From positions 1-48,495 of the forward strand of contig JAFQGY010000346.1 in the NCBI GenBank assembly GCA_017415325.1: a DNA stretch of 48,495 nucleotides, read 5' to 3'. A program made the translations under genes and the position numbers. Shown here in pieces: positions 3,645 through 36,945 of this stretch. The DNA is from Clostridia bacterium (GTDB lineage Bacteria; Bacillota; Clostridia; Oscillospirales; CAG-272). Below the pieces are notes generated by a model, which saw nothing but the letters and a program-made list of their open reading frames with translations, searched no databases and was not told where the DNA came from. Within the stretch, counting starts at the first letter, position 1; every line of letters starts with the position of its first letter.

Positions 3645-4820
3645 ATGAAGAGAAGAATTTTCTGTGCTGTTATGACAGTGGTACTGGTGCTGACCATGCT
3701 GCCTGTCATCGTTGCTGCGGAAGGCGCCGTTGAAATCGCATTCACGCAGCGGGAAACCAAAGCAGGTGCCACACAGGTGCAGGTGGGCGTTGACATGAGC
3801 AACAACCCCGGTCTGGTTACCGCAACCATTCCCGTAACCTGGGACAATGATGTGCTGCATCTGGTGGATGTAATCCCGTCCGAAGACATTCTGTCCGCCG
3901 GTTGGATCGGCATGTCCATGGATGAATATGAATCCAACGGTACTTACTATCTGGCATGGGACAATGACCTGGCTGAAGCAGACTTCACCACGGAAGTAGG
4001 CTGTCTGGCTGAGCTGGTGTTTGATATTGTGGATCCTTCCAAGGATACCAATACCACTCTGGCGTTTGACATGGACGACCCCATTGCCAACGTGATGAAT
4101 TTTGATATGGAAGACCTGCGGGAAACCGTTACTGTGAATGCGGCAAACGGGACTGTTGCTGTTGCTGCGGAAGCAGGCGGGGATGATCCTGTGGTGGATC
4201 CGGAAAGTGCGCAGTTCTATATGCCTACTGTGGATAGAGTGCGGATGGGTGAACCCTTCTCTCTTCCTGTGGATCTTGTAAATAATGCAGGTCTGTCTTC
4301 TATCATCATTGATGTATACTACGATGCAGATGTTTTCAATTATGTTGATGCAGTATACGGAAGTGAGTTTTTGAAGCCGATTACGAATGCAATGACTGAC
4401 GCTGAAGGCAACCCATTCCTGAGATGTACGTGGGTTGATGGTCTCGAAAATATTGTTGGCGACAAAACTTTTGTAACACTGAATTTCCTTGTAAATGAAG
4501 GTGTTGAAGAAGGTTCTTACGAATTTGATATTGTATATGATCCTGACAATGTGTACATGGTAGAAGGTTATGATTACTATAATGTTGACATGGCTGTTGT
4601 AAAGGGTGTTGCGAATATTGTGGATTATATTCCCGGTGACATTGACGGTGACGGAAATGTAAACGCTAAGGACCAGGGGCGGCTGCTGCAGTATCTGGCA
4701 GGTCTGCCTGTAACTGTGGATGTAAAAGCACTTGATGTCAATGGTGACGGAAATGTAAACGCTAAGGACCAGGGGCGGTTGCTGCAGTATCTGGCAGGTC
4801 TGCCTGTGGAAATTTATTAA
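3645..4820 (+). CDS. Adaptor scaffoldin: signal peptide, cohesin A, cohesin B, dockerin
   Basis: RBS AAGGAGAGG; signal MKRRIFCAV. Two cohesin-like domains (VQVGVDMSNNPG..VTWDNDVL; LPVDLVNNAG..VYYDADVF). C-terminal duplicated dockerin GDIDGDGNVNAKD..LLQYLAG. Confidence 0.85.
   Translation: MKRRIFCAVMTVVLVLTMLPVIVAAEGAVEIAFTQRETKAGATQVQVGVDMSNNPGLVTATIPVTWDNDVLHLVDVIPSEDILSAGWIGMSMDEYESNGTYYLAWDNDLAEADFTTEVGCLAELVFDIVDPSKDTNTTLAFDMDDPIANVMNFDMEDLRETVTVNAANGTVAVAAEAGGDDPVVDPESAQFYMPTVDRVRMGEPFSLPVDLVNNAGLSSIIIDVYYDADVFNYVDAVYGSEFLKPITNAMTDAEGNPFLRCTWVDGLENIVGDKTFVTLNFLVNEGVEEGSYEFDIVYDPDNVYMVEGYDYYNVDMAVVKGVANIVDYIPGDIDGDGNVNAKDQGRLLQYLAGLPVTVDVKALDVNGDGNVNAKDQGRLLQYLAGLPVEIY
4647..4807 (+). 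repeat. 65-bp direct repeat (4647-4711, 4743-4807) encoding the two dockerin halves
   Basis: 64/65 nt identical; the only difference is CGGCTG vs CGGTTG. Confidence 0.95.
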
Positions 4821-4830
4821 GGAGTAAATA

Positions 4831-7800
4831 ATGAAAAAGAGTTTATCTGTTATTTTAGCAGTAATGCTCGTAATTTGTATGTTGCCTATCGGAGTATTGG
4901 CAGCTGGTGATCCTATTATGAATATCTCTGACGCTTCTGGTGAAAAAGGTCAGACGGTAAGCGTTAAGGTTGATCTGGAAAACAATCCTGGGATTGCTTC
5001 GTGCATTATTGATTTATATTATGATGGTACAGCATTTACATTTGATAGTGCTGAATATCACAGCAAGATTTCCAAGCCCATTACCAACGCCATGAATGAG
5101 AACGGAAAAAATTGGGTTCGGTTTACATGGGTAGATGGTATGGCAAATGTTACTGGCGATTTCACATTTGTGGATGTTAAATTTGTCATTAACGATGCAG
5201 CGGAATACAAGGAATATCCTCTGGATATCAAGTATAATCCGGAAGATGTATACATGGTTGAAGGATATGATTATTTCAATGTACCGTTCAGCATTGAAAA
5301 GGGTTCCATCACCGTAACCGAAAAGCCTAAGGCTGACTTCACTGAAGACATGTACCTCACTACCAACAAGACCAGCTACACCTATGGTGATACTGTTGCA
5401 GTATCCGTTGCCAATCTGGCTGACGGTGCTGATGTGAAGTACATTGTCAACGATGGCGAACCTGCCGATACCGTAAACATCAAGGATGCCGGTGAATACA
5501 CCATTTCCGCCGTTGTTTCCAAGGATGGTTACAATGATAAGGAACTGGATGCCATTACTGTAAAGATTGCCAAGAAGGACGTTACCATTTCCGGTATTAC
5601 TGCAGCAGACAAGACTTACGATGGTACTGCCAATGTTGATGTGGATACCACGAATGTGGTGATCAATGGAAAGGTTGAAGGGGATGATCTGGAGGCCGTG
5701 TTTCCTGAACCCTTCCAGCTCGACTCTGCCGATGCCGGTAATCGTTCTGTTGTGCTTGCTGGTACCAAGCTTGATGGTGATGCTGCTGATAATTATACGC
5801 TCACATCGGTCGAAGAAGTAACAATTGAAGTATCCAAGAGAGCAATCACTGTAAAGGCTGAAAATGATACCAAGAAAGTTGGAAACAGTGATCCCGATAA
5901 GTTCGTTGCGACTATCACAGAAGGTACTCTTGCTGATGGTCAGGATATCAAATATACTGTATCCAGAGAAGCAGGTGAAGAAGTTGGCAAGTATGCAATT
6001 ACACCTGTTGCTGAAATCACTGCCGATGATAAAGATGTAACGGCTAACTATGAGATTTCGTATCAGAACGGTATTTTTGAAATTATTGACAAGACGCTGA
6101 AGTCCATCGCAGTAACCACTCCTCCCACGGATGTTGAGTATGTTGTTGATGAAACACTGGATATTACCGGTATGGTTGTAACAGCTACATACGACAACGG
6201 TACTACTGATTCCGTGGACGCATATACTGTTCCTGAAAAGATTCAGTTCACAGAAGCTGATATCGGTGAAAAGGAAATTACTGTAAAGTACGGTGAAGCG
6301 ACAGCAACCTTTACAGTAACAGTTATCGCAAAGGAACTCCAGGGTATCACTGTGGATTCCTCCAAGGCAAAGACCGAATACATTGTTGGTCAGACCTTCT
6401 CTGCTGCAGGCCTGCTGGTATACCCTGTGTATAACAACAATGTAGAATATCCTGCGCTGGATTCTGCCGACTACACGGTGGAAGCCCCCGATATGGATAC
6501 TGTGGCAGATGACGCAGTTGCAACGGTTACTTACGAAGGTAAAACCCAGACATACAAGGTTGTTATCAAGGACAAGAGTCTGGAAAAGCAGCTGATTGTT
6601 ACTGAAAAGAACGCCGAAGACATCAAGAACGTTTATGTTGAAGGCAAGACATTCGATTCATCCAACCTGACTGTTACTGCAAAGTATAATAACGGTGATG
6701 AAGTTGTTGTAACCGACTTTACCGTAGAGCTCGCAGGCAGTCTGGCAGTTACAGATAAGTATGTAACTATCAGTTGGACTGATGAAGAACGTGGTCAGAC
6801 TGCTACTTACCAGTATGGCATTACTGTAAATGAAGCAGAAGTAGAGAGTTTCCTGTTTGTATCTTGGGAAAATGAATATATCGAAGATCAGGAATTTGAC
6901 GTTTCTTCTGTTGTTCTGGAAGTATTCTATAACAATGGAACTTCCAAAGAAGTAGTTAGTGGTTTTGCTGTTTCTCCGATGAGAATGACCACAGATATCA
7001 CTTATGTAACTGTTACATATGCTGGTATTTCCATGACAGCAGATGTTCAGGTTTCTGCCAAGGTTCTGGAAGACATTGCTGTTCCCGCAGCTGCTGCAAG
7101 ACAGTATGTTGAAGGCGACAGCTACAAGACTGCCTACATCAATTATATTGAAGCAACCTACAACAACGGTAAGACCTATATGCTGTCTCCTGCCAAGTAT
7201 ACGGTAGAACCGGAAATCATGGCAGTGGATACTACCGAACTGGTATTTACTTACACAGAAGGTGACGTTACCAAGACAGCGACACTGGCTGTAACTGTTC
7301 TGGAATGCGTAGCCACCAACGGTGACGACAGATACGCCAGCATCGTGGATGCTCTCAACGATGCAGAAGATGAAGATACCATCGACGTAATCGGTGAAGC
7401 TGTAATCGACGAAGATGTAATCATCAATGAAGACATCACTGTTGATGTTGATGAAGATGCTTCCCTTACCCAGGAAGAAGACACTGATATTACCGTTTCC
7501 GAAGGTTCTCTGACCATCGTGAACAACACCGAAGAAGATATTACTCTGACCATCAACGGTGAAGAAGTTACTATCGCTGCCGGTGAATCCTACACTGCTG
7601 AACCTGTTGTGGAAGAAGATGACGGCTTTGATGCTTACTATAGCTTCTACATGCAGATGCTCCAGTGGAGAAACCGTATCTTCAATATTAACTACAAGCA
7701 GACTGAAGGCGGTACCGTCTCCGGTCTGAAGAATGCCCGCATCGGCCAGACTGTAACTGTTACCATCACTCCCGACGAAGGCTATGCCATCGCAGATGTA

Positions 7801-8454
7801 CTGGTGAACGGCAAGTCTGTGGGTGCTGTGGAATCCTACAAGATTCGTAACATCAAGTCCAACCAGACCGTTTCCGCTGTATTCGAAAAGATCGCAGCAA
7901 CCAGTCCCTTCGTGGATGTTTCCGTAGACGCTCCTTACTTTGACGCTGTTCTGTACGTATACAACAACGGCATCATCAACGGCGTTTCCGAAACCGAAAT
8001 GGTATTCGCTCCCGACACCACCATGACCCGCGCTATGTTCGTTACCGTTCTGGGCAGAATGTCCGGCGTGAACATGGCTGACTACCCGGTTGTTACCTTT
8101 GCCGACTGCGAAGCCGGTTCCTGGTACGCTCCTTACGTAGAATGGGCCGCACAGGCTGGTATCGTGAAGGGCTACAGCGCAGAAGCCTTCGGTCCCATGG
8201 ACGAAATCACCGTGGAACAGGCTGCTGTAATCCTGTATCGCTACATTGCATACATGGGCTACAACACCGCTGCTGACGCTGATCTGGCGAACTACGCTGA
8301 CGGCGCACAGGTTTCCGAATGGGCTGCAGAACAGATGAAGTGGGCTCTGGCCAACAACATCTACGTTTCCGACACCACTCTGGATCCTCAGGCTCCCGCT
8401 GCACGTTCTCTGGTAGCCGAAATGCTGTACAACCTGTCCGTCTGGAGGGGCTGA
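4831..8454 (+). CDS. Anchor scaffoldin: cohesin B, YDG/MBG-like, five Ig-like repeats, SLH domains
   Basis: N-terminal cohesin (VKVDLENNPGIASCIIDLYYD); DKTYDG (YDG-like); KKVGNSDP..SREAGEEVGKY (MBG-like). Five repeats of Y..G.TF...G..V.A.YNNG. SLH motifs PFVDV, MTRAMFVTVLGR, ITVEQAAVILYR, RSLVAEMLYN. Confidence 0.87.
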   Translation: MKKSLSVILAVMLVICMLPIGVLAAGDPIMNISDASGEKGQTVSVKVDLENNPGIASCIIDLYYDGTAFTFDSAEYHSKISKPITNAMNENGKNWVRFTWVDGMANVTGDFTFVDVKFVINDAAEYKEYPLDIKYNPEDVYMVEGYDYFNVPFSIEKGSITVTEKPKADFTEDMYLTTNKTSYTYGDTVAVSVANLADGADVKYIVNDGEPADTVNIKDAGEYTISAVVSKDGYNDKELDAITVKIAKKDVTISGITAADKTYDGTANVDVDTTNVVINGKVEGDDLEAVFPEPFQLDSADAGNRSVVLAGTKLDGDAADNYTLTSVEEVTIEVSKRAITVKAENDTKKVGNSDPDKFVATITEGTLADGQDIKYTVSREAGEEVGKYAITPVAEITADDKDVTANYEISYQNGIFEIIDKTLKSIAVTTPPTDVEYVVDETLDITGMVVTATYDNGTTDSVDAYTVPEKIQFTEADIGEKEITVKYGEATATFTVTVIAKELQGITVDSSKAKTEYIVGQTFSAAGLLVYPVYNNNVEYPALDSADYTVEAPDMDTVADDAVATVTYEGKTQTYKVVIKDKSLEKQLIVTEKNAEDIKNVYVEGKTFDSSNLTVTAKYNNGDEVVVTDFTVELAGSLAVTDKYVTISWTDEERGQTATYQYGITVNEAEVESFLFVSWENEYIEDQEFDVSSVVLEVFYNNGTSKEVVSGFAVSPMRMTTDITYVTVTYAGISMTADVQVSAKVLEDIAVPAAAARQYVEGDSYKTAYINYIEATYNNGKTYMLSPAKYTVEPEIMAVDTTELVFTYTEGDVTKTATLAVTVLECVATNGDDRYASIVDALNDAEDEDTIDVIGEAVIDEDVIINEDITVDVDEDASLTQEEDTDITVSEGSLTIVNNTEEDITLTINGEEVTIAAGESYTAEPVVEEDDGFDAYYSFYMQMLQWRNRIFNINYKQTEGGTVSGLKNARIGQTVTVTITPDEGYAIADVLVNGKSVGAVESYKIRNIKSNQTVSAVFEKIAATSPFVDVSVDAPYFDAVLYVYNNGIINGVSETEMVFAPDTTMTRAMFVTVLGRMSGVNMADYPVVTFADCEAGSWYAPYVEWAAQAGIVKGYSAEAFGPMDEITVEQAAVILYRYIAYMGYNTAADADLANYADGAQVSEWAAEQMKWALANNIYVSDTTLDPQAPAARSLVAEMLYNLSVWRG

Positions 8455-8527
8455 GTCACAGCAATCCTGTAATGCAGTCTCCCGGAGCAATCCCGGGATG
8501 CGCTGCTGACATCAATATCTGAACCCG

Positions 8528-8574
8528 AAAAGCGGTCGTTTCCCATGAGACAATTGGTGGAATCGGCCGCTTTT
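8528..8574 (+). terminator. Stem-loop between scaffoldin genes and the dockerin array
   Basis: AAAAGCGGTCG...CGGCCGCTTTT; a second hairpin (TCCCGG-AGCAATC-CCGGGA) lies at ~8480-8498. Confidence 0.6.
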
Positions 8575-8626
8575 GTCGGATTTTTGTGTTTTCACAGAAC
8601 AAGCTCACAAGAAAAAGGATGACAAT

Positions 8627-10654
8627 ATGATGAAACTGACCAAATGGATCGGTGTGCTGGCAGGGCTGGCGGCAGGGACTGTCATGATCACCGGCGCCGC
8701 AGCGGAAACCGTTCCGGAAACATTGTCCCTCCTGTACAAAGGAGATCTGGTGCCTGTGTTTTTTGATGCAGACCGGCAGGAGGCATTTACAGAACCACAG
8801 GCAATTGTCTATGATGCACTTGCGGATGCCGTGAATTCCGGCGCAGAACGGGTGTCTGTAGCGGATGCGGCATATACGGATGTGGCGGAACTGCATGCTT
8901 TCGTGCAGGAAACGCTGAATGTGGAAGTGTACTGGCCCCATGTGGAACGGGAAGTGCAGTATAGTACCGATGACCAGACCGGCGTGGTGACAGAACTGCT
9001 TCTGACCTACTCTGCGGACGACCGGTACAGCTTTTCCGGGGAAACCAGTGCGGCCGCCGGCATCACCACCATCGAACAGGGTGTGGCACATGCCATGGCA
9101 GCCATCCGGGACGATATGACCGATCTGGAAAAGGTGCTGGCGATCCACGATTATCTGGTGCGGGAAGTGGATTACGATCCGGGGTATCCGGACAATATCA
9201 ATGAAGACTCCTACTGGCTCGAGGGCGTTTTCCTGAACCGGATTGCCGTGTGCAACGGGTATGCGCTGGCCTATTCCCATCTTCTGAGCCAGTGCGGCAT
9301 TGACTCCTATGTGGTTTCCTCCGACCCCATGAACCATGCCTGGAACCTGATTGAGCTGGACGGAACCTGGTACCATGCCGACGCCACCTGGGACGACCCC
9401 TCCAATCAGTGCGGCGGATTTGTGTACCATAAGTATTTCCTGAAAAGCGATGCGGAATTTGAAAACGAACTGGGGCATTACAGCTGGGTAATCCAGAACA
9501 GCGGCGGAACAGCGGCACCGGAAGCCACCGTCAGCGACAGCTTTGCCGGATATGCTTTCCGGGAAACGGCGGATGATGTGCGTCCCGGGATGCTGAACGA
9601 GCTGGACGGCACCTATTACTACCTGTCAAACGTGTGGGGCAGCAATACCATGTATGTTTCCGACATCTCCCGTACGGAGGTACAGCAGATCACCCTGCCG
9701 GTAACGGTGGAGTTTCTGTTCCTGTATGACGGGAAACTGTACGGAAATACCGCCAGCCGGGTCTACGAAATGGATCTGGCGGGGAATATCCTCCGTACGG
9801 TAGCGGCCTCTCCGGAGCAGATCGTCAATTTCTGGCTGAAGCTGGATACGCTGTCCTATTGTGTGCAGCATGGGGACGGAACCCAGTCCGTTCTGGATGT
9901 GGATCTGGTGAACGGCGCCACAAACCTGATTACGGAAAACGGCCTGACCTATATCATTAACGGCGGAAAGGCCACCCTGGTGGAAGCGGACGAAACCATC
10001 ATCGATCTGACAGTGCCGGCAGCGGTAAGCGGATACCCGGTGACGGCCATCGGTGCCTCTGCCCTGGAAGGAAACCGGAATCTGGTAACTGTGTTTCTCC
10101 CGGATGGACTGGAAACCATCGGAAACAGAGCGTTCATGCAGACCGGTCTGAGAAGGGTGGGCATCCCGGCTTCTGTAACCTATATCGGCGACATGGCGTT
10201 CTGGAACAACTATTCCATGACCATGATGACGATCGAAGGGAATCTGGACTATCTGGGCAATGAAGCGTTCAAATACTGTTACAGACTGGCGAATGTCTGG
10301 TTTGACGGAAATGCGCCCAGAACCGTGGGCACAAATGTATTTACGGAATGCGACGCTGATTTTACCATCTATTATAATGTAGGAACCACCGGCTGGAGCA
10401 CTCCCACCTGGTCCCCCAATGCCAATGAAAGCTACAACGCTGTCATGCTCACTCCCGTAGGGGATCTGACCGGTAATGGTACGGTGGATCAGGAGGACGT
10501 TTCCATGATCTCCGACTGGTTCGCCGGGAAGTATGCCGAAGTGCCCTTTGAAACCTACAAGGCCGACTTCAACGGCGACGGGAAGTTCAGCCGGGCGGAC
10601 GGTATGTATCTGGCAAGAGCACTGGCGGGCTGGGAAGGATACACCCTGAGCTGA
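8627..10654 (+). CDS. Secreted transglutaminase-like + LRR (BspA-type) + dockerin protein
   Basis: Signal peptide; AVCNGYALAY..HAWNLIELDGTWYHADATWDD; LRR IGNRAF/IGDMAF; C-terminal dockerin GDLTGNG..DFNGDGKFSRAD. Confidence 0.85.
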   Translation: MMKLTKWIGVLAGLAAGTVMITGAAAETVPETLSLLYKGDLVPVFFDADRQEAFTEPQAIVYDALADAVNSGAERVSVADAAYTDVAELHAFVQETLNVEVYWPHVEREVQYSTDDQTGVVTELLLTYSADDRYSFSGETSAAAGITTIEQGVAHAMAAIRDDMTDLEKVLAIHDYLVREVDYDPGYPDNINEDSYWLEGVFLNRIAVCNGYALAYSHLLSQCGIDSYVVSSDPMNHAWNLIELDGTWYHADATWDDPSNQCGGFVYHKYFLKSDAEFENELGHYSWVIQNSGGTAAPEATVSDSFAGYAFRETADDVRPGMLNELDGTYYYLSNVWGSNTMYVSDISRTEVQQITLPVTVEFLFLYDGKLYGNTASRVYEMDLAGNILRTVAASPEQIVNFWLKLDTLSYCVQHGDGTQSVLDVDLVNGATNLITENGLTYIINGGKATLVEADETIIDLTVPAAVSGYPVTAIGASALEGNRNLVTVFLPDGLETIGNRAFMQTGLRRVGIPASVTYIGDMAFWNNYSMTMMTIEGNLDYLGNEAFKYCYRLANVWFDGNAPRTVGTNVFTECDADFTIYYNVGTTGWSTPTWSPNANESYNAVMLTPVGDLTGNGTVDQEDVSMISDWFAGKYAEVPFETYKADFNGDGKFSRADGMYLARALAGWEGYTLS

Positions 10655-10718
10655 TCGACGCAGGAATGTTCTGCCGGAGAAACCGGTTTTATAACAGGAA
10701 TCACAGAGGAATAGTCAC

Positions 10719-12656
10719 ATGAAACTTCAGAAAACCATATCTGTCCTGACGGCGCTGTTGCTGACGATGCAGTGTGCTGTTCTGCCTGCATGGGCGGAAT
10801 CTGCAGAACCGGTACCGGCAGGCAGTTATCAGATCAACCCCATCGGCAGTGACCTTCTTCCGGAAGATCTGCCGGAACCCGAGGGGGAACAGGGCGAAAC
10901 GCTGTTTGTGGAGCAGGCAGCAGTATATTACACGACCGTGGAAGACGCAGCCGATGCGATCATGGATGCCATGAAGAGACGGGAAGCGGCCATTTCCGTA
11001 GGTGTCACCCGGGAAGTGTACGATATTCTGAACAGCACGGATGCGCATCCCCATAACGTCCTTTTTGACGCAGCCTGCGAGCACGATCCGGACGACCCCA
11101 CCGCCGGGGACTATACCGGTCAGCTGTACCACTACTGGCAATCCGATGCAACCAGCTGGAACGGAAACAACGCCACAATTGTCTATCATGTTATCTACCG
11201 CACAACGCTGGCGGAAGAACAGCTGGTGGATGCCGCCGTGGCTGAACTGGTGGCCCAATGGACTGCTGCAGACATGGAACCATACGATACCATCTGTACG
11301 ATCTATGACTACATTACCGAAAACGTGGTGTATGACTATGCCGGTCTGGATGCAGGGGATCTGCATGTCTATACGGCGTACAAGGGTCTGATCGAGGGTA
11401 CCGCCGTATGCATGGGGATTGCCAATCTGTTCTACCGGCTGGCCATGGAAATGGGGATTGACGCCCGGATGATCCACAGTATTGATCGGGAAAACCATAC
11501 CTGGAACATCGTGGAATTGGACGGGCTGTACTACAATCTGGACGCCACATGGGATCTGGGAACGAATCCTGTTGCGTACAATTATTTCCTCCTGAGCCCG
11601 GAAATCTTCGGTATCGGCCACAACCGCCGGAGTGATTACGACACAGCAGCATTCCATCAGGCGTATCCCATGGACACTGTGGGGTATCTGCCCTTTGAGG
11701 GATCTGATTCCGGTACCTGCGGGGAAAACCTGACCTGGACCCTGACGGACGAGGGGATTCTGTCCATCGAAGGCACCGGTGCCATGTACGACTACAATTT
11801 CCGCCGGAACGGAGAGAACTGTTCCCCCTGGAGCCCCTGGACGGCAAAAATCACCGGACTGAACATCGGTGAGGGCGTGTCCTATCTGGGAAACTGGGCA
11901 TTTATGGAGTGCGTTGGTCTGGATTCCATTGCGATTCCCGGCAGTGTTGAGAGAATCGGATCCGGCACCTTTGCGTTCTGTGAATGGTATACGGAACTGA
12001 CGCTGTCGGAAGGACTGCAGCATATCGGCGGCATGGCGTTTTACGGCTCCAAAATCGATACGCTGAACCTTCCTTCCACGCTGCAGACCATTGGCAGTCA
12101 GGCGTTTTCCTCCTGTCTCCGGATCACGGAGCTGACCATTCCGGAAAATGTGACAAACATCGGCGACATGGCCTTCTCCTATAATACCTCTCTGGAAACC
12201 CTGCGGATTCTGGGGGATCTGGACTATCTGGGCGTGCAGGCGTTCTCCTGGTGTTATCCCCTGACCCGTGTGGAATTCCATGGGGGTGTGCCGGGGACAT
12301 GGTGGTCAGGACTGTTCAGTGAAAACGACCAGGATCCCGTGATTTATGCCGCCCGCAGCGATGCGTGGACTCCCTATGAGGGGACGGACGGCAGCCTGCT
12401 GTGGAATGCACCGGACGGAACGGCATACAAGTTTGAGTGGCTGGACGGGGAGGAGACCCCCGGCGACCTGACCGGTGACGGAAAGACGGACGAAGACGAT
12501 GCCGCCATGATTTCCGCCTGGTTTGCCGGCATGTACGCGGAAATTCCCTTTGACCCCGAAATGGCCGACTGCAACGGTGACGGAAAATTCACCCGGGCGG
12601 ACGGTATGTATCTGGCAAGAGCACTGGCAGGCTGGGAAGGATATACCCTGCCGTGA
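10719..12656 (+). CDS. Secreted transglutaminase-like + LRR + dockerin protein
   Basis: AVCMGIANLF..HTWNIVELDGLYYNLDATWD; LRR cap GTCGENLTWTL; LRR repeats; dockerin GDLTGDG..DCNGDGKFTRAD. Confidence 0.85.
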   Translation: MKLQKTISVLTALLLTMQCAVLPAWAESAEPVPAGSYQINPIGSDLLPEDLPEPEGEQGETLFVEQAAVYYTTVEDAADAIMDAMKRREAAISVGVTREVYDILNSTDAHPHNVLFDAACEHDPDDPTAGDYTGQLYHYWQSDATSWNGNNATIVYHVIYRTTLAEEQLVDAAVAELVAQWTAADMEPYDTICTIYDYITENVVYDYAGLDAGDLHVYTAYKGLIEGTAVCMGIANLFYRLAMEMGIDARMIHSIDRENHTWNIVELDGLYYNLDATWDLGTNPVAYNYFLLSPEIFGIGHNRRSDYDTAAFHQAYPMDTVGYLPFEGSDSGTCGENLTWTLTDEGILSIEGTGAMYDYNFRRNGENCSPWSPWTAKITGLNIGEGVSYLGNWAFMECVGLDSIAIPGSVERIGSGTFAFCEWYTELTLSEGLQHIGGMAFYGSKIDTLNLPSTLQTIGSQAFSSCLRITELTIPENVTNIGDMAFSYNTSLETLRILGDLDYLGVQAFSWCYPLTRVEFHGGVPGTWWSGLFSENDQDPVIYAARSDAWTPYEGTDGSLLWNAPDGTAYKFEWLDGEETPGDLTGDGKTDEDDAAMISAWFAGMYAEIPFDPEMADCNGDGKFTRADGMYLARALAGWEGYTLP

Positions 12657-18166: not shown

Positions 18167-18223
18167 AACAGGGATCGTGCCGCAGATTGTCCTGCATATT
18201 TGCAATTTTGTATATCCTTCCGA

Positions 18224-18270
18224 AACACCATGGGGGAGAAGGCCTCTCCTGTGGTGTTTTGTTTTTTGTT
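18224..18270 (+). terminator. Intrinsic terminator
   Basis: AACACCATGGGGGAG-AAGGC-CTCTCCTGTGGTGTT followed by T tract. Confidence 0.8.
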
Positions 18271-25929: not shown

Positions 25930-25964
25930 TTTGTACCGGATATCTGAATAAAACCGGAACAAAA

Positions 25965-26181
25965 CCGCTCCTGTGGGACAAACCTGCGGGGGCGGGTTTT
26001 GTTTGTGCAGATAAAATGTATTTTTTATCAAACAACTTGCGGAAAGAATAGTTTTGTGCTATACTGTTGGGGAACAACAATACAGGAGGACAACAGAGGG
26101 ATATGAAGACAATGAAAAAACTGCTGCTTGCGGCCGGGATGCTGGCACTGCTGATGCTGCCGGTGCAGGCGGAGGATGCTG
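25965..26181 (+). repeat. 217-bp repeat (terminator-promoter-RBS-signal peptide), copy 1; copy 2 at 28960-29176, partial copy at 32006-32047
   Basis: Near-identical sequence CCGCTCCTGTGGGACAAACCTGCG...GGAGGATGCTG on visual alignment. Confidence 0.92.
26037..26065 (+). promoter_or_regulatory. SigA-type promoter (duplicated at ~29032-29060)
   Basis: TTGCGG-17 nt-TATACT with extended -10 TG; the copy reads TTGCAG-17-TATACT. Confidence 0.65.
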
Positions 26182-28931: not shown

Positions 28932-29001
28932 GGAAAAACCAATACAGCCAAAACCAAATCCGCTCCTGTGGGACAAACCTGCGAGGGCGGGTTTTGTTTG
29001 T
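28734..29001 (+). repeat. 268-bp repeat (dockerin + terminator), copy 1; copy 2 at 31780-32047; related dockerin 3' half at ~22590-22678
   Basis: Long identical runs such as CCCGGAAGGATGTCATGATTCTCGCCCGGTATCTGGCCGGATGGGATGGGTATGACCAGTA in three genes. Confidence 0.92.
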
Positions 29002-29097
29002 GCAGATAAAATGTATTTTTCATCAAACAACTTGCAGGAAGAATAGTTTTGTGCTATACTATTGGGGAACAACAATACAGGAGGACAACAGAGGATT

Positions 29098-31977
29098 ATG
29101 AAGACAATGAAAAAACTGCTGCTTACGGCTGGAATGCTGGCACTGCTGATGCTGCCGGTACAGGCGGAGGATGCTGAGCCGGTGTATATGCCTGCCCATG
29201 CACCTGCCGGAGCAGAGGAAGAAATGACCGGTTCATCCGGTTTCGGGGAAACATCCGCAGCATTCCAGGAGTGGAACAATATCCAGTGGGAATTCGATGA
29301 AACCACAGGGACACTGACGATCACAGGGCAGGGGAAAATGCCTGGATGGAGTTTCAGAGATGCCCCATGGGTCGGACATGCTGCTCAGGTAAAGACGGTA
29401 ATTGTAGGAGAAGGTATTACCTATATCGACAGCTGGGTACTTTCTTGCAGAGATATGCCGTATACTGCCCTCCATCTGCCGTCAACGCTGGAATATATAG
29501 ATGTAAACATGCTGGAGAACACTTCTCTGAATACCATTACGGTTGCAGAGGGCGGTATGTATTATGTAGAAGATAATGTTCTTTTCTGTAAAGATGGAAA
29601 TATGGTGACACTGAGCTTTTATCCGGGCGGTCTGACGAATACGGAATATACCGTTCCTGAGGGTGTTTCACATATTGGCAGATCTGCATTCGTCAATCGG
29701 AATCTGAAGAAGGTAACTCTGCCGGAAAGTCTTGTGGGAATCGGATATGTGGCGTTCGATGGTGCATACAGTCTTACGGAAATAACAATTCCGGCAGGGG
29801 TATCGGAGATTGATCTTGCAGCATTTGTGTATAGTGGTCTGCAAAATATTTATGTGGATCCAGACAACACCTGCTATACTTCTGTGGACGGCGTTCTGTT
29901 TACAAAGGATATGTCTATGCTGCATACCTATCCGGAGCGTAAAGAAGGGAACGGAGAATATACGGTGCCGGACGGAGTAACCGATGTGGTTTCAACCATA
30001 ATGTCTCTGAGCTATATTCGAAAGCTGTATCTGCCGGCTTCCGTGGAACGGCTGGTATCTGCTGGTACAGGGGCTTCCTCCTCTGCCTGGCTTCGTGAAA
30101 TCTATGTTGCGGAGGACAATCCGTACATGACGAGCGTGGATGGTATTCTGTACAGCAAGGATGTGACAGAACTGCTGTGGTATCCCAACAATCATTCCAA
30201 TATAGAATATACGGTACCGGATACGGTAGAACATATATACAGTTCTTCTTTCTGGTGGATCACCAATCTGCAGACAGTAATTTTCAACGATAAGGTATCT
30301 GTTGACGGATTTCTGCAGTGGGGAAACACCCTGACAGCGATGTACTTCCCTGGGAATGTTCCGGCCTGGCTGAATGATGCATGCAGGAGTGTGAAGGATC
30401 AGGCTATCCTGTACTATCCCAATGGAAACCCCACCTGGACGGACGGCTCCATGACAGTGGATGGGTATACCTATACCACAGCGGCATACGGAGAAGGGGT
30501 AGAAGACAGCACTGTATGGAACACATGGGAGAATATCGAGTGGTTCTATTACGATGTTACAGGCATCCTGAAGGTTCGCGGAACGGGTACCATCCCCGAT
30601 GTGGAATATGCAGAATATCCGTGGAATTCCTACAGATTCAACATCAAAAACCTGACTGTGGAAGCCGGCATCACCGATATTCCCTGGGGGGCATTTTATG
30701 GGTGTTATAATATGCTGTCCGTAAATCTCCCTGCTACGCTGGAAAGTATGAATACGGAATTTCTCATAAATGCATATAGCTTAAGAAGTCTTCAGGTAGA
30801 AGAAGGCGGTACCATATATACAGAGGACGGCGTGCTGTTTTCTGCGAAAGATAAGTCGCTGCTTCTGTATCCGCGATATCTGCAGAATGCATCGTATACT
30901 GTACCGGAAGGGACTATACGCATTGCATACAACGCTATAAACGGAAACGGTTCGCTGAAAGAACTGATTCTTCCGGAATCTCTTGAAGAAATCATGGGAA
31001 GGGCGCTGCAGATATCCGGTCTGGAGAGTCTGTACATTCCCAAAAATGTCCGGTATATTGATATGAACGGGATCCGTTTCTGTGATTATCTGACGGAAAT
31101 CACGGTGGATGCCGATAATCCCTATTATAAATCTGTGGACGGTATTCTTTTCACGGAAGATATGACAGTACTGCATACCTATCCGATGGGTCGTACGGCG
31201 GCTGAATACACGGTGCCGGATACGGTTGTGATAATGCCTGCTGCTGTATATACACAGGTACGGCAGCTGAAAAAACTGAATATTCCCGCTTCTGTGGAAG
31301 AGATCTGTGCGGCTACCGGCTGGTCTGGCGGATGCGTACTGGAAGAAATCGTGGTGGATCCGGACAATGCATATTTCTGTTCCGAAGACGGCGTGCTGTA
31401 CAGCAAGGACAAGACCGTACTGTACCATTATCCTGCCTGTAAAGAAGAGAAAGAATACCATATACCGGATTCGGTAACCACAACGATGTCTTTATGTATC
31501 TATGATGCGGATTATCTGGAAACACTGTATGTCGGGAAGAATATTGCCGATGTTCGGGATGCTATATTAGGCGGAACCTTCCCCCGACTCACCGGGGTCT
31601 ATTTCCAGGGGGATTTCCCGGACTATTTCTGGAAGGCATTCAACAATCTGCTCTACAGAGGAACAAAGTGTACATTCTATTATCCGGAAGGTGCCGAAGG
31701 ATGGAGCAGCCCCACCATGGAGATCAATGGATTTACATTCACCACTGCGGCATACACCCCCGACACTGCTGACATTCCCGCAGGTGACATCACCGGCGAC
31801 GGAACCACCGACCAGAATGACCTGTCTCTCCTGACCCAGTATTTCTCCGGCTACCCCACCGAAATCGATGAATCTGCTGTGGATCTGGACGGAAACGGGA
31901 AGCTGACCCGGAAGGATGTCATGATTCTCGCCCGGTATCTGGCCGGATGGGATGGGTATGACCAGTACTTCAGCTGA
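29098..31977 (+). CDS. Secreted 2x LRR + dockerin protein (paralog of 26103-28931)
   Basis: Same signal peptide, architecture and dockerin as the upstream gene; LRR payload clearly diverged. Confidence 0.85.
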   Translation: MKTMKKLLLTAGMLALLMLPVQAEDAEPVYMPAHAPAGAEEEMTGSSGFGETSAAFQEWNNIQWEFDETTGTLTITGQGKMPGWSFRDAPWVGHAAQVKTVIVGEGITYIDSWVLSCRDMPYTALHLPSTLEYIDVNMLENTSLNTITVAEGGMYYVEDNVLFCKDGNMVTLSFYPGGLTNTEYTVPEGVSHIGRSAFVNRNLKKVTLPESLVGIGYVAFDGAYSLTEITIPAGVSEIDLAAFVYSGLQNIYVDPDNTCYTSVDGVLFTKDMSMLHTYPERKEGNGEYTVPDGVTDVVSTIMSLSYIRKLYLPASVERLVSAGTGASSSAWLREIYVAEDNPYMTSVDGILYSKDVTELLWYPNNHSNIEYTVPDTVEHIYSSSFWWITNLQTVIFNDKVSVDGFLQWGNTLTAMYFPGNVPAWLNDACRSVKDQAILYYPNGNPTWTDGSMTVDGYTYTTAAYGEGVEDSTVWNTWENIEWFYYDVTGILKVRGTGTIPDVEYAEYPWNSYRFNIKNLTVEAGITDIPWGAFYGCYNMLSVNLPATLESMNTEFLINAYSLRSLQVEEGGTIYTEDGVLFSAKDKSLLLYPRYLQNASYTVPEGTIRIAYNAINGNGSLKELILPESLEEIMGRALQISGLESLYIPKNVRYIDMNGIRFCDYLTEITVDADNPYYKSVDGILFTEDMTVLHTYPMGRTAAEYTVPDTVVIMPAAVYTQVRQLKKLNIPASVEEICAATGWSGGCVLEEIVVDPDNAYFCSEDGVLYSKDKTVLYHYPACKEEKEYHIPDSVTTTMSLCIYDADYLETLYVGKNIADVRDAILGGTFPRLTGVYFQGDFPDYFWKAFNNLLYRGTKCTFYYPEGAEGWSSPTMEINGFTFTTAAYTPDTADIPAGDITGDGTTDQNDLSLLTQYFSGYPTEIDESAVDLDGNGKLTRKDVMILARYLAGWDGYDQYFS

Positions 31978-32111
31978 GGAAAACCCTATACAGCCATAAC
32001 CGAATCCGCTCCTGTGGGACAAACCTGCGGGGGCGGGTTTTGTTTGTTTTTGGGAGTAATTAATCTGCCTTTAAAAAATCATGGCCAAAGGGATTTTTCT
32101 GATAAAATCGC

Positions 32112-32140
32112 TTGCAATTTGCATTCTTTGGTGTTATACT
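32112..32140 (+). promoter_or_regulatory. SigA-type promoter
   Basis: TTGCAA-17 nt-TATACT with extended -10 TG. Confidence 0.7.
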
Positions 32141-32193
32141 TATACATGGACAAATATTGTCATGGCAAAATTTTCTAAGAGGAGAGAGAACCA

Positions 32194-35100
32194 ATGAAAC
32201 GCAAACTTTGGACAGCGCTGCTTCTGGCGGCCCTGACGACGACCCTGCTTTCCACGGCTGCGGCTGCGGAAGACTGGGGAAGCGGCGGATGGGAAGTGGC
32301 CAAGCGGAAAGCGGACTGGAATCCGGACGGTATCTGGGCAGAAGGGGAATACTATTCCGTTGACCCGGCCTATGATACGGAAAACTATCAGGCTGCCAAC
32401 GATGAACTGTACGAACGGGCAGAAAATCTGAACTACATGATGGCGATGTCCTGGGACGAAGACTACCTGTACACGTACATTTCCTATCAGGCACCCGCCG
32501 AACCGGTTGTTTCCGCAGACCTGTGGGACGGCCATGTGATTCAGTTCTCCGGGACAGATGTGGGGAACGAAACCATTTATAATGAAAATGGGGAAGTAAC
32601 AGATGACCCCCGCCTGGAAATCGGGATTACCAGAAATTTTGAAACCGACGAGAAGATCAGTACCAACTGGTGCACCTGGCTGGATTCTGACTATGGCTTC
32701 GATTCCAACTGTACGGACGACTTCGAAGCGTTCTTCTGCGACGGTTGGGTGACTTACGAATTCCGCGTGCCCTTTGCCGCATTCTCGGAGATTACCCCTG
32801 CGGTGAACGAACAGGTCGGCGTGGCGTATGTGATTGCCGTTGGGGACGGGGACTGGAATTATTCCCATGTCCAGATCGGGCAGGGCGTCACCGGCGGGAA
32901 GCATGCGGAACTGCATTCTGTGATCACCCTGACGGATACATTTGAGTTTCCGGAACGGGACGGCAATGCGTACTATATCCTGTTCCATAATATCGGGAAC
33001 AACAATCCCCACAGCGAATATTTCTCATACTATGAAAGCGGTGACAGCCTGCAGTATTACGGTACGGACGGCGCTGAAGATACCGCATATGCAGACGACC
33101 TGCTTGCCCTTCTGCCGGAAGAAAAACGGGAAGAAATGCAGAACGTGGAAGGGTATGATTTTATCAACTTCCGTCTTGCATACTGGAACGAGACAGACGG
33201 TGTCGGCTCCGTGGTGGAAAACCGGCAATTCAAGCTGACGGACAAGGTTTCTCTTGCGGATGTACAGGACTATGCGTTCTACGACGGGTACAACTGGTGC
33301 ATCATGTTCACCGCCTGCTATGACCCGGAAATGTACACCGTAAAGTTCAACAACATCGGGAACGTGAATCCGGGCGACTACTGGTCGGCACAGAAGATGG
33401 ATGTTGTTCCCTTTGACACCAACTTCTACGATATTTTCCCGTATGAATGGGACTACCCGACTCTGTTTGACGTACCCGGGTTCCGGTTCGACCGCTGGCG
33501 TGTGCTGGACTTCACCAATGAAGTGGAAAATCCCGGATATGAAGAACAGTACATGAGCGGCGGCGCCATGTATTACGGCGGTGCTGCTACAGAAGACGGG
33601 AGATACCCGCTGGACGGCTTCATTGCCGGATTTGCTTCCGAAATGGAAAGTGACGAATATCCGGTCATTACCCTCCGTGCGGTGTATTATCCCATCGACT
33701 ACACCATCCGCTTTGTGGACGATGACGGCGTGACGGAACTGCGGGATTCTGTGGTTCTGCACATCGGTGACGGGATCCGTGACCACTTCCCGGAAATCCC
33801 CGAGAAGGACTACGGTACCTTTACCCACTGGAAGCTGGACTGGGTGAACGGGGAAGACGGCTTCTATACCATGCCGTATGACGACGCAGACAACCCGGGA
33901 TACCCCATTGACGAAAACCTGATCGAAAAGTGTGCCGTGGATACCGATGATGACGGGTTCGGCGACACCATCACCCTCGTGGCGGAATACGAGCTGAACG
34001 AAGATGCCGGGGATCTGCGTGCATCCGGTATCATCGAAACCGAAAACGGCGATATCCAGTGGGAAGTACACTGGAACGGCCTGCTGTTTGTGGGCAACCA
34101 TGACCTGATAAACGGGCTTGTGATTCCGGATTATGAGATCTGGGAGGGCGTTTATGCACCGTGGCATCCCTACAGAAACTACATCACCGAACTGGAAATC
34201 GGCAGTGAAATTGGCGTGATCGGTAAAAATGCCTTTGCGGAACTGCAGAGAGTGGACTATCTCTTTATTCCCGGCAACGTAAAGGAAATCCGCGAAAATG
34301 CATTTATTGACTGCTGGAATGTAGGCTATATCGAACTGGATTACGGTATCGAAAAGATCGGCCGGGACGCATTCTGCGGCTGCAATACCGGCGATCTCTG
34401 GATTCCCGAAACTGTGACCGAAATGGACAGAGCTTCCTTCGCCCATCTGGGTACCAACTGGTACGGTGTGGACGGGAATAACCCTGTGTTCCATGCAGTA
34501 GACGGCGTCCTGTTCTATGAAGCAGACGGCCGGTACATCCTTTGGGCATATCCCAAGTGGGATGGACGACCTTCCTATGCAGTGCCGGAGGGTGTGGATA
34601 CCATCGGCGCCTGTGCATTCAAATGGGCAGAAAACGTAAAATCTGTGATTCTGCCGGATTCTCTGAAGTCTATCGAAGACGCTGCATTCTCCCGCTCCGG
34701 TGTGGAAACCATTCAGATTCCCGCCGGTGTGGTATTCCTGGACAACGGGGCATTTGAAGGTACGAATTCCCTGTCTTCCGTATACTTCTACGGCCCTGTT
34801 CCGACAGACTATGTAGGGTATGAGGTATTTACGGAAAACACCGACGACTTTACCATCTACTATCTCGAAGGTCAGGAAGGCTGGACGGAAGGTACATGGG
34901 ACAACCCCTATACGGAAGATGCAGCGGAAGCATATCCCACCGCCACCTTCTCCGCAGATGTCAACTTTGCGGAAGGTTCCATTGAAGGGTATGACATCAC
35001 ATGGTACATCACCATGGACGGCAGGCTGTATGTAAACGGCTCCGGCGAAATCCCGGACTATATCTGGGAGTACGGCTACAGCTGGTATGACCATATGAAT

Positions 35101-36945
35101 TCCATCCGGGAAATCCATATCGGCGACGACATCACCCGGATCGGGAACCATGCCTTTGACTGCGCATGCTATGTATCTGCTCTGACCCTGCCGAAGAATC
35201 TGGTGGAAGTCGGCGCACATGCATTCAATGGACAGTACAACAATGTGGGTACTCTGGTACTGCCCTATCAGGTGGAAACACTGGATTACAGCGCGTTCTG
35301 GGATATGGGTATCACCAAGGTAACCATTCCCGCATCCACCACCCTGATCGTCGGCAACGTATTTGCAGGCTGTCCCGTGGAAGAATACGTGGTGGAAAGC
35401 GGTAACCCTGTACACATGGCAGATGAATACGGTGTACTGTATTACTTGGAAAACGGTAAAGTGGCGGCAATTACCGCATATCCCATGGCCTCCGAACTGA
35501 CCGAATACACCATTCCCGAAGGGGAAGTGGAAATCGACGGCGTAACCTACGACTTTGCCGTAACCGACATCGACGACAGAGCGATTCACTGCACATGGAA
35601 TCTGGAAAAGATCACACTGCCGGAAACCCTGTGTGTGATCAAGGAACACAGTCTGAGCTACAACAACAATCTGTGGGAACTGACCATTCCTGCTTCCGTA
35701 TGCGAACTGTATCGGGATGCCCTGGCCTACAACTGGAACCTGCCCTCCATCCTCTTTGAAGGGAACAAGCCCGATATGCATGATGAGGAAGAAGGAACCC
35801 AGTTTAGGGAAAGCGGCGGCTATTGCGATACAGAATTCACCATCTACTACTACGAAGGTGCCGAAGGCTGGGCGGACTACACTCTGTACAAAACCGTGGC
35901 CATCGGTGAAGACGGTGTGATGTACAGCGGTACCATTGACGATACTATCACATGGTACATCACTGCGGACGGCAAGCTGTATGTAAACGGTTCCGGTTCC
36001 ATCCCGAACGATGTAGGAGATTATGAATACAGCTGGCATAACCACAAGGATTTTGTAAAAGAAATCCACATCGGCGAAGGCATCAAGGTGATCGGAAACA
36101 ACGCATTCTCCGGCTTCGGCAATGCGACTGTGCTGACTCTGCCGGATTCTCTGGAAGAAATCTGGACTGGCGCATTCCATGATACGGGCATCACCCATGT
36201 GACCATTCCTGCGGCTACATGGCAGATCATTGACAATGTATTCGGCGGCAGCCCTGTGGAAGAAATCACAGTGGAAGAAGGCAACCTCTGGCATGCAGTG
36301 GACGAATACGGTGCGCTGTATTATATGGAAGATGAAAACTATGGCTATCTGCTGTCCTATCCTGCCGCATCTGAGGGTACGGAACTGACAGTACAGGAAG
36401 GCACACACCACATCGGCAACCATGCTATTTACGGAACTTCTCTGACCTCCATTACCCTGCCCGGTTCTCTGCAGCATATCGGTTACGCCGGGATCTGCCT
36501 TAACGAAGGTCTGACCTCCCTGACCATTCCCGCTTCTGTGGGAGAGGTGGAAGAACGGGCTCTGGCATACAACAGGAATCTCAGTGCCATTACCTTTGAA
36601 GGCGACAAGCCCAATCTGTGGAGTGAAGAAGAAGGACTGCAGTTCGAACAGAACGCCGAAGACTTCACCATCTACTACTACGAAGGTGCCGAAGGCTGGG
36701 TGGACTATACTCTGTATCCCACCGTGGCGCTGCGGCGTACTTCCAAGGGGGACGTTACCGGGGACGGCAAGGTGACAGAAAACGACCTTGCTCTCCTGAC
36801 CCAGTACTTCGCAGGCTATCCTGTGGAAGTGGATGTATCCGTCATCGACATCGACGGTGAAAACGGCCTGACCCGGAAGGATGTCATGATCCTGAAACGG
36901 TACATCGCCGGCTGGGAAGGCTACGACCAGTACTTCGCAGAATAA
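32194..36945 (+). CDS. Secreted DOMON/CBM9-like + B-repeat-like + 3x LRR + dockerin protein
   Basis: RBS AAGGAG; WNPDGIWAEGEY..MAMSWDEDYLY; Y.I.F..PGF.F..W..L.A.Y repeats; three LRR modules; dockerin GDVTGDG..DIDGENGLTRKD. Confidence 0.83.
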   Translation: MKRKLWTALLLAALTTTLLSTAAAAEDWGSGGWEVAKRKADWNPDGIWAEGEYYSVDPAYDTENYQAANDELYERAENLNYMMAMSWDEDYLYTYISYQAPAEPVVSADLWDGHVIQFSGTDVGNETIYNENGEVTDDPRLEIGITRNFETDEKISTNWCTWLDSDYGFDSNCTDDFEAFFCDGWVTYEFRVPFAAFSEITPAVNEQVGVAYVIAVGDGDWNYSHVQIGQGVTGGKHAELHSVITLTDTFEFPERDGNAYYILFHNIGNNNPHSEYFSYYESGDSLQYYGTDGAEDTAYADDLLALLPEEKREEMQNVEGYDFINFRLAYWNETDGVGSVVENRQFKLTDKVSLADVQDYAFYDGYNWCIMFTACYDPEMYTVKFNNIGNVNPGDYWSAQKMDVVPFDTNFYDIFPYEWDYPTLFDVPGFRFDRWRVLDFTNEVENPGYEEQYMSGGAMYYGGAATEDGRYPLDGFIAGFASEMESDEYPVITLRAVYYPIDYTIRFVDDDGVTELRDSVVLHIGDGIRDHFPEIPEKDYGTFTHWKLDWVNGEDGFYTMPYDDADNPGYPIDENLIEKCAVDTDDDGFGDTITLVAEYELNEDAGDLRASGIIETENGDIQWEVHWNGLLFVGNHDLINGLVIPDYEIWEGVYAPWHPYRNYITELEIGSEIGVIGKNAFAELQRVDYLFIPGNVKEIRENAFIDCWNVGYIELDYGIEKIGRDAFCGCNTGDLWIPETVTEMDRASFAHLGTNWYGVDGNNPVFHAVDGVLFYEADGRYILWAYPKWDGRPSYAVPEGVDTIGACAFKWAENVKSVILPDSLKSIEDAAFSRSGVETIQIPAGVVFLDNGAFEGTNSLSSVYFYGPVPTDYVGYEVFTENTDDFTIYYLEGQEGWTEGTWDNPYTEDAAEAYPTATFSADVNFAEGSIEGYDITWYITMDGRLYVNGSGEIPDYIWEYGYSWYDHMNSIREIHIGDDITRIGNHAFDCACYVSALTLPKNLVEVGAHAFNGQYNNVGTLVLPYQVETLDYSAFWDMGITKVTIPASTTLIVGNVFAGCPVEEYVVESGNPVHMADEYGVLYYLENGKVAAITAYPMASELTEYTIPEGEVEIDGVTYDFAVTDIDDRAIHCTWNLEKITLPETLCVIKEHSLSYNNNLWELTIPASVCELYRDALAYNWNLPSILFEGNKPDMHDEEEGTQFRESGGYCDTEFTIYYYEGAEGWADYTLYKTVAIGEDGVMYSGTIDDTITWYITADGKLYVNGSGSIPNDVGDYEYSWHNHKDFVKEIHIGEGIKVIGNNAFSGFGNATVLTLPDSLEEIWTGAFHDTGITHVTIPAATWQIIDNVFGGSPVEEITVEEGNLWHAVDEYGALYYMEDENYGYLLSYPAASEGTELTVQEGTHHIGNHAIYGTSLTSITLPGSLQHIGYAGICLNEGLTSLTIPASVGEVEERALAYNRNLSAITFEGDKPNLWSEEEGLQFEQNAEDFTIYYYEGAEGWVDYTLYPTVALRRTSKGDVTGDGKVTENDLALLTQYFAGYPVEVDVSVIDIDGENGLTRKDVMILKRYIAGWEGYDQYFAE

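Follow-up and report, generated by a model that had tools for sequence, protein, structure and literature searches.

What would a cohesin-dockerin scaffold present at the cell surface if its dockerin proteins bear no cellulases? The question is raised by a locus in the window analyzed here, that is, the whole stretch of DNA under study, which is one complete contig (C320, 48,495 bases) of a Clostridia bacterium. The source is a gut, Ruminococcus-like bacterium, whose assembly comprises 3.87 Mb in 433 contigs and is 92% complete. On the + strand, at 3645-36945, ten genes for secreted proteins are arranged head to tail, and a signal-peptide-like N-terminus, behind a purine-rich site resembling a ribosome-binding site (RBS), can be read from the sequence in all ten proteins. 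A preliminary description of this DNA had listed two cohesin proteins, an adaptor (p1) and an SLH anchor (p2), followed by eight co-oriented secreted proteins (p3-p10, here called the cargo), and all ten genes were found where it had placed them. We consider it likely, at a probability of roughly 0.6, that the locus encodes a small cell-surface cohesin-dockerin display system, built like a cellulosome and without glycoside hydrolases (GH). To judge by its sequence, the locus works like a cellulosome scaffold, yet without dockerin-borne cellulases among the reading frames that were scanned.

Adaptor and anchor scaffold proteins

The adaptor scaffoldin p1 (3645-4820, + strand; 391 aa) has a start codon with an RBS and comprises a signal peptide, a first cohesin (Coh1, about 3726-4166), a linker, a second cohesin (Coh2, about 4203-4619) and a symmetrical dockerin (about 4629-4817). 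Pfam assigns Cohesin (52.1 bits over two stretches) and Dockerin_1 (46.1 bits), and a six-frame search of the genome places the cohesin matches at 3741-4058 and 4224-4520. Beginning 10 bases past p1, the SLH anchor p2 (4831-8454, + strand; 1207 aa) consists of a signal peptide, a cohesin (4921-5226), YDG, MBG_2, Big_3 repeats, Flg_new_2 and SLH repeats (7906-8034 and 8098-8226, possibly one more). Its cohesin (aa 31-128) was unlisted in the whole-protein Pfam scan and scored 45.7 bits (E 1e-11) when the N-terminus was scanned separately; it was also recovered in the six-frame search. SLH matches were obtained in 10 reading frames on 10 contigs, and SLH anchoring is thus in general use in this genome.

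The gathering cut-off of the cohesin family (PF00963) is passed by the p2 cohesin and by p1 over its two stretches. Coh1 by itself lies under that cut-off (22.6 versus 24.1 bits); despite this score it is, on profile comparison, a cohesin homolog, as alignment to the Coh2/anchor profile with hhalign gave a probability of 97.2% and E 2.9e-11. Compared with solved structures, the profile of Coh2 and anchor cohesins from three genomes matches clostridial and Acetivibrio scaffoldin cohesins at E 1.2e-14 and below, and the Coh1 profile gives weak matches to the PDB, of which the best three are all cohesins (E 0.18-0.67). A carbohydrate-binding module (CBM) family was found by Pfam in neither p1 nor p2, so the scaffoldin CBM3 of a strict cellulosome is missing here.

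Dockerins and catalytic domains across the genome

Three cohesins were found in the genome, a number that is a lower bound given its sequence-based detection. All of them are in p1 and p2, and the six-frame Pfam search agrees with hidden Markov models (HMMs) built from the locus for Coh1 and for Coh2/anchor. Dockerins are more numerous, with 18 reading frames by Pfam, 10 of them in the window, and an HMM of the locus cargo dockerins recovered exactly this set. The Dockerin_1 (PF00404) cut-off is passed by all nine dockerins of the locus and by that of an eleventh gene of the window, p11. In both dockerin alignments (A6 and A7) the Asp/Asn positions of the Ca2+ loop are conserved. Sixteen of the 18 dockerins are of the cargo type, and of all of them the adaptor dockerin matches the cargo model least well (42.8 bits versus 62-120).

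LRR_5 repeats are present in 12 of the 18 dockerin frames, and conversely a dockerin is present in 12 of the 18 LRR_5 frames genome-wide; the genome-wide count that had been proposed in the preliminary description therefore comes to three cohesins, 18 dockerin frames and 12 with LRR_5. Outside the window, four dockerin frames carry LRR_5 (one on C21, two on C83 and one on C330). A frame on C272, which the contig end cuts, combines its dockerin with Peptidase_S8 (subtilase), one on C133 has a weak CBM9_1 match, and in one on C138 the rest of the protein is without assignment. The last, on C230, is a 69-aa fragment whose N-terminal part is absent, and it fell outside the scanned set.

Pfam detected GH, polysaccharide lyase (PL) or carbohydrate esterase (CE) domains in none of the 17 dockerin frames scanned, the 18th being the C230 fragment. 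For the locus proteins, of which the same had been claimed before, scans at E ≤ 0.01 for whole proteins and E ≤ 0.5 for cut pieces were empty of such domains. The alpha-amylase family was likewise absent from the 17 frames, to which the GH13 search was limited. A genome search for GH9 gave no matches, and one for GH5 gave four over the cut-off, none of them on a dockerin frame. Scaffoldin cohesins and dockerin-bearing subunits, which a strict cellulosome has, are both present; dockerin-borne cellulases were not found among these frames, and by that defining test the locus is not a cellulosome in the strict sense.

Cargo proteins and their modules

LRR_5 and a C-terminal Dockerin_1 exceed their Pfam cut-offs in all eight cargo proteins, in agreement with the earlier statement that each carries a dockerin and BspA-type leucine-rich repeats (LRRs). 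Three of the eight, p3 (8627-10654), p4 (10719-12656) and p5 (12761-18166), all on the + strand like the cargo genes that follow, contain a Transglut_core domain (PF01841; 37.6-38.4 bits, cut-off 23). The Cys-His-Asp triad is invariant in the four sequences aligned (p3, p4, p5 and the ortholog in the related genome G005), so that the transglutaminase-like enzymes named in the preliminary description are indeed present with the triad intact. The nearest solved relative of these cores by sequence is a weak match (9crn, E 0.023), and we can only infer that they would act as a protease, deamidase or transglutaminase.

Both p3 and p4 consist of a signal peptide, the transglutaminase-like core, LRR_5 and a dockerin of subtype A; all later cargo dockerins are of subtype B. 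In p5 the core is accompanied by two LRR_5 regions, Cys-rich ribbons, a CarboxypepD_reg-like sandwich and an unnamed module of about 555 aa (16010-17707, aa 1100-1665). LRR_5 regions alternate with CBM9-like modules (19832-20509 and 21782-22459) in p6 (18401-22678), and p7 (22840-25929) has three CBM9-like modules (22927-24939) and LRR_5. The tandem paralogs p8 (26103-28931) and p9 (29098-31977) consist of LRR_5 arrays and the dockerin. In p10 (32194-36945), a CBM9-like module (32257-32979) and a stretch without assignment (aa 256-615) stand with six LRR_5 stretches. Searches of NCBIfam with the cargo gave only partial matches far under cut-off, to the MAG6410 transglutaminase-related lipoprotein, adhesin HupY and Gli349, and none was adopted.

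The CBM9-like module, of about 220 aa, occurs in six copies (two in p6, three in p7 and one in p10). Its Pfam match to CBM9_1 is faint (12.6 bits versus a cut-off of 23.4, E 0.13), and a protein atlas placed it with CBM9_1 clusters at a score of 0.94. An AlphaFold2 (AF2) model from the six copies, with a predicted local distance difference test score (pLDDT) of 82.8 and a predicted template-modeling score (pTM) of 0.85, matched the CBM9 structures 7nwn, 7nwo and 1i82 in Foldseek at E 1e-7 to 4e-7 and TM-scores of 0.56-0.67. As modeled, the module has the CBM9 beta-sandwich fold and is non-catalytic. Together with the C133 dockerin protein and its weak CBM9_1 match, the six modules point to glycan binding as a predicted property of part of the cargo.

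The p5 module at aa 1100-1665 is conserved: 755 cluster representatives match it at E ≤ 1e-3, of which 194 reach E ≤ 1e-30. It is found in large surface proteins with a terminal dockerin or SLH; in 30 aligned members its partners were CarboxypepD_reg (13), Dockerin_1 (8), LRR_5 (7) and SLH (5). Its model (pLDDT 72.8) consists of two beta-sandwiches, an ill-defined helical part and a final beta-sandwich. Foldseek returned only tandem beta-sandwich matches of low TM-score (about 0.14); no family was assigned from these, and the module resembles no solved enzyme fold. A protein atlas search with p5 aa 830-1745 gave no usable match, and a sequence search of the PDB with p5 aa 830-1746 and p10 aa 263-620 gave rows at chance level only. 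Two Cys/His-rich segments of about 70 aa each (15215-15412, aa 835-900; 17705-17947, aa 1665-1745) flank the middle of p5 and match zinc ribbons weakly (Zn_ribbon_SprT, E 0.001). On visual inspection, p10 aa 256-615 resembled Flg_new-type repeats; BLAST of this stretch against itself and against the Flg_new_2 stretch of the anchor was empty, and the assignment was dropped.

The paralogs p8 and p9 are most alike at their ends. At the 5′ end, 222 nt that span the leader and signal peptide (25960-26181 and 28955-29176) are about 94% identical in DNA, as are, at the 3′ end, 268 nt that span the dockerin and terminator (28734-29001 and 31780-32047); the LRR bodies are only about 64% alike. By sequence this looks like cassette exchange or homogenized ends. 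The terminator 3′ of p7 is 97.8% identical (45 nt) to that 3′ of p9.

Relatives of the locus

Two other species of the same genus, represented by genomes G005 and G067, have an orthologous adaptor with an anchor directly after it and cargo genes next, namely one transglutaminase/LRR gene and one p10-like gene in G005, and one p9-like and one p10-like gene in G067. Within the genus, cohesins (E ≤ 1e-3) were found in 29 of 53 genomes. In the wider family, Coh1-type sequences were found in 3 of 300 other genomes, all weak (27-34% identity). Across the three genomes with the orthologous locus, the cargo dockerins are conserved, with 11 invariant positions in alignment A7. A search for adaptor relatives at E ≤ 1e-5 gave 38 proteins, all without a name and about 16 of full length, and a scan of metagenome contigs with the adaptor alignment gave no relative. 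The combination of a transglutaminase core with LRR_5 and a dockerin is common in metagenomes; of the 120 p4 relatives listed, at least 10 have it, and those with a name are called ‘leucine-rich repeat protein’.

The cargo set appears to change as well. In a close relative, the 681-aa protein P0001 joins the N-terminus of p3 to the body of p4 in a single chain, and its dockerin is identical to that of p4 at 66 of 66 positions. Such a chimera indicates that the cargo set changes via recombination between paralogs. P0001 is recorded on a contig of 9,972 bases from the same source as P0273, an adaptor described below. A further arrangement was seen in genome G068 (contig C128, locus L024), where a 915-aa protein with cohesin and dockerin is followed by a 1172-aa cohesin protein that ends in a hydrophobic tail, not in SLH; the cohesins of these two proteins are not mutual best matches.

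A variable cassette in the adaptor

We aligned 17 adaptors, 15 of them from the search for relatives together with those of G005 and G067. Six of the 17, the adaptor of the window included, have a Coh1 at 80% identity or more, and in four of these it is 95-97% identical to that of the window. In the same six adaptors Coh2 is different in every case (16-31% identity), as is the dockerin (32-54%), and the mosaic break falls at the linker between Coh1 and Coh2. The adaptor P0273, for example, is 95% identical to the window adaptor in Coh1, 18% in Coh2 and 46% in the dockerin. Conversely, like cassette types recur on distant Coh1 backgrounds in three adaptor pairs: G067 and P0279 share 55% identity in Coh1, 81% in Coh2 and 90% in the dockerin; P0276 and P0280 share 66%, 48% and 73%; and P0273 and G005 share 46%, 39% and 70%, respectively. 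Pairwise distances of Coh2 and dockerin are correlated (r = 0.84; partial r given Coh1 0.83), with about one in 2000 label permutations reaching the observed value, and Coh1 distances track neither of them (r 0.13-0.14). Coh2 and the dockerin adjoin in one gene, so block recombination alone could yield their correlation. That Coh1 is conserved while Coh2 and the dockerin behave, in these alignments, as a swapped cassette is the new result of this work; a search of the literature, which was not exhaustive, found nothing on a hypervariable cohesin-dockerin cassette.

A second likeness does not follow from linkage. In five of six genomes (G000, G005, G067, G054 and G062; the exception is G068), the dockerin-proximal adaptor cohesin and the anchor cohesin are mutual best matches, at 42-50% identity, and in those five the pair is closer than either is to any cohesin of the other genomes. 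Possible causes are the tracking of a common ligand or gene conversion. The adaptor dockerins are each internally symmetrical. A search for anchor homologs (E ≤ 1e-20) did not have the anchors of the close relatives among the 120 of 252 matches listed, and seven anchor-like cohesins, when set beside Coh2 of all 17 adaptors, formed no informative pairs.

Our tentative reading of this pattern, which we hold at somewhat less than even odds, is a hypervariable, recombining specificity cassette at the joint between adaptor and anchor, made up of Coh2, the adaptor dockerin and the anchor cohesin, which are contiguous in DNA. If it is true, each strain would have a private code by which the display complex is attached to that strain's surface. 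Because Coh2 copies the anchor cohesin, adaptors could also join one another and interlock as a chain with one cargo protein per link on Coh1. A functional swapped cassette would be a natural source of orthogonal cohesin-dockerin pairs, useful for designer scaffolds, and would amount to strain-level self-recognition in surface assembly.

Probable transcription units and neighboring genes

The preliminary description had cited the cip-cel type layout of cellulosomes as its known parallel, and on this point it needs correction. Terminator-like hairpins, found by pattern matching on the + strand, lie 3′ of p5 (18221-18261), p7 (25965-25995), p8 (28975-28994) and p9 (32002-32040), and promoter-like sites were matched 5′ of p7 and p10. 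Total counts of promoters and terminators do not exceed those of shuffled sequence, and we used only the placement of the strongest hairpins in intergenic gaps. Given the hairpins after p5, p7, p8 and p9, the locus is not a single operon of the cip-cel type, and to judge by these patterns it is probably several transcription units. Contigs of 150-515 nt from RNA libraries (four runs of three studies, animal gut samples) match pieces of p1-p5 at 95-99% likeness; the matching does not show transcription, and the parts left uncovered are uninformative.

The neighboring genes are ordinary sugar-metabolism genes. Upstream on the opposite strand is a GH36 alpha-galactosidase gene (1186-3585, - strand), and downstream are genes for a PfkB kinase (37139-38155, + strand) and a class II fructose-bisphosphate aldolase (38496-39341, + strand); all three are without dockerins. 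Further downstream, p11 (41902-43557, - strand), which lies outside the locus proper, encodes a secreted protein whose dockerin is N-terminal (aa 49-105) and precedes about 430 residues without assignment, and it belongs to the same dockerin set as the genes of the locus. The two repeats of its dockerin are in reverse order compared with those of the cargo. It is flanked by genes for three predicted lipoproteins with a Cys after the signal sequence (40247-41791, 43629-45110 and 46752-48296, all on the - strand), two of which are paralogs of about 514 aa, and none of the three has a Pfam match. This eleventh dockerin gene on the minus strand, the six CBM9-like modules and the terminators had all been overlooked in the earlier description.

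Proposed mechanism and alternative explanations

In the mechanism that we propose, the anchor would be held in the wall by its SLH repeats, with its single cohesin raised on a long stalk of Ig-like domains. The adaptor dockerin would plug into this cohesin, and the cargo dockerins (16 of the type in the genome, plus p11) would compete for the adaptor, most likely at the conserved Coh1. If Coh2 has the specificity of the anchor cohesin, chaining of adaptors would be possible. With about 17 cargo proteins competing for few sites, the surface coat would be exchangeable, made up of binders of the LRR and CBM9-like kinds and, among them, a few cysteine-protease/transglutaminase-like enzyme heads. 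Rather than depolymerizing substrates, the coat would probably serve to attach the cell to food particles, to other microbes or to host mucus through their glycans or proteins. In support of this mechanism, the variation seen in Coh2 and the adaptor dockerin is not shared by Coh1 and the cargo dockerin, both of which are conserved.

Several points weigh against this mechanism or narrow it. Complex prediction gave no credible model of cohesin-dockerin binding: the adaptor Coh1-Coh2 with a cargo dockerin reached 0.07 against a mark of 0.32, a value that we count neither for nor against binding. In the interaction data of Israeli-Ruimy 2017 for Ruminococcus flavefaciens FD-1, dockerins with an LRR parent protein mostly bound none of the cohesins tested. 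A 2026 preprint (10.64898/2026.02.05.704116) describes many ruminococcal cohesins as invisible to sequence methods, for which reason our three are a lower bound. The assembly is fragmented and incomplete, and contig borders affect two dockerin frames, the 69-aa fragment at a start and a truncated one at an end; the GH48 search was blank here and equally silent in every control genome, so it is uninformative. P0273 and P0001 would lie on one contig, as is suggested by equal contig size alone. After all scans, p10 aa 256-615, p5 aa 835-1100, the N-termini of p3-p5 and p11 are without domain assignment. Finally, with a GH36 gene next to the locus and CBM9-like modules in the cargo, a part in the use of carbohydrates is conceivable. 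The preliminary description had inferred a modular surface display serving binding ‘rather than polysaccharide’ breakdown; domains and census support an SLH-anchored architecture whose cargo is other than carbohydrate-active enzymes (CAZymes), and the exclusion of polysaccharide was too strong because the six CBM9-like modules and the weak CBM9_1 match on C133 point to glycans. The receptors, the proteases and the phage or host interaction that it also named are candidate functions only.

The alternative that survives best, unlikely as we consider it, is that the cargo dockerins bind a non-local partner, such as the cell wall, a cohesin of another organism or a non-cohesin target, and that the adaptor and anchor serve each other or p11. 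The excess of 17 dockerin proteins over three cohesins would fit this, as would the FD-1 result that most LRR-parent dockerins were non-interacting with the cohesins tested (Israeli-Ruimy 2017). Set against it is the position of the cargo genes directly 3′ of the only cohesin genes in three genomes, together with the joint conservation of Coh1 and cargo dockerins across close relatives.

Slightly less probable still is that the locus is the visible part of a larger CAZyme cellulosome or amylosome, whose other cohesins are too divergent to be detected and whose GH-dockerin genes are unassembled or fragmented. The gaps in the assembly, the C230 frame without its N-terminal part and the uninformative GH48 search leave space for such genes, and entire ruminococcal scaffoldin sets are reported as detectable only structurally (10.64898/2026.02.05.704116). 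The dockerin frames that are in hand speak the other way, since GH, PL and CE domains are absent from all 17 scanned, the locus-built HMM added no dockerins, GH9 is without matches and the four GH5 genes are without dockerins.

The least probable alternative is a complex that is mainly a protein-enzyme machine, in which transglutaminase-like cores and the subtilase cleave or cross-link proteins positioned by LRR arrays: the triad is intact in three cargo proteins, the C272 dockerin is fused to Peptidase_S8 and a rumen dockerin survey reports protein-catabolism functions among non-CAZyme dockerin proteins, but five of the eight cargo proteins of the locus and nine of the 12 LRR dockerin proteins of the genome have no recognized catalytic domain.

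Comparison with known systems

Transglutaminase/LRR dockerin operons and non-cellulolytic cohesin-dockerin systems were previously known, so the kind of system is not new. Presumably non-cellulolytic microbes with scaffoldins have already been described (PMC11557425; PMC4611034; 10.64898/2026.02.05.704116). As characterized in the sources cited, amylosome-type systems of Ruminococcus bromii and R. difficilis resemble the locus in that their cohesin-dockerin assembly is independent of dockerin-borne cellulases, and R. difficilis scaffoldins bear LRR and Ig-like binding domains. In those systems amylases, or at least one GH, are still carried on dockerin proteins, whereas no such enzyme was found in the 17 frames scanned here.

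SdbA and OlpB are SLH-anchoring scaffoldins of the Acetivibrio / Clostridium thermocellum type. In such systems the cohesin of the SLH protein receives the dockerin of the scaffoldin (PMC11557425), an arrangement that would apply here to judge from sequence, and it is clostridial and Acetivibrio cohesins that come closest in the profile comparison with solved structures. Ruminococcus anchors are described as usually sortase-linked (PMC11557425), unlike the SLH anchor of the locus with its stalk of YDG, MBG, Big_3 and Flg_new_2. The cargo in turn resembles LRR adhesins of the BspA and HupY/LrrG types in its LRR_5 arrays and partial NCBIfam adhesin_HupY matches, which score at most 104 bits versus a cut-off of 1250, so that the cargo proteins are not members of the HupY family.

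The closest parallel is an operon of R. flavefaciens FD-1, known here by its description and not by sequence. Its genes ORF01263-01267 are reported to encode four SIGN-transglutaminase-like-Doc proteins and one SIGN-LRR-Doc protein with group 4b dockerins, and the dockerin proteins of that strain to include 28 LRR and 10 transglutaminase modules (Rincon 2010, PMC2930009). Like the locus, the operon as described is a head-to-tail series of secreted transglutaminase-like and LRR genes, with a common dockerin-bearing C-terminal part and variable N-terminal parts. FD-1 differs in being cellulolytic, in having many GH enzymes with dockerins and in its anchor ScaE, which is sortase-linked and, according to the interaction data of Israeli-Ruimy 2017, binds group-4 dockerins. 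In the locus, by contrast, the cargo adjoins the only cohesin genes, the anchor is an SLH protein, and transglutaminase core and LRR are combined in a single protein. The role of LRR/transglutaminase dockerin proteins and the identity of their cohesin partners have been in question since the FD-1 genome, and the genome studied here offers a smaller version of that question, in which three cohesins face about 17 dockerins and no cellulases complicate the picture.

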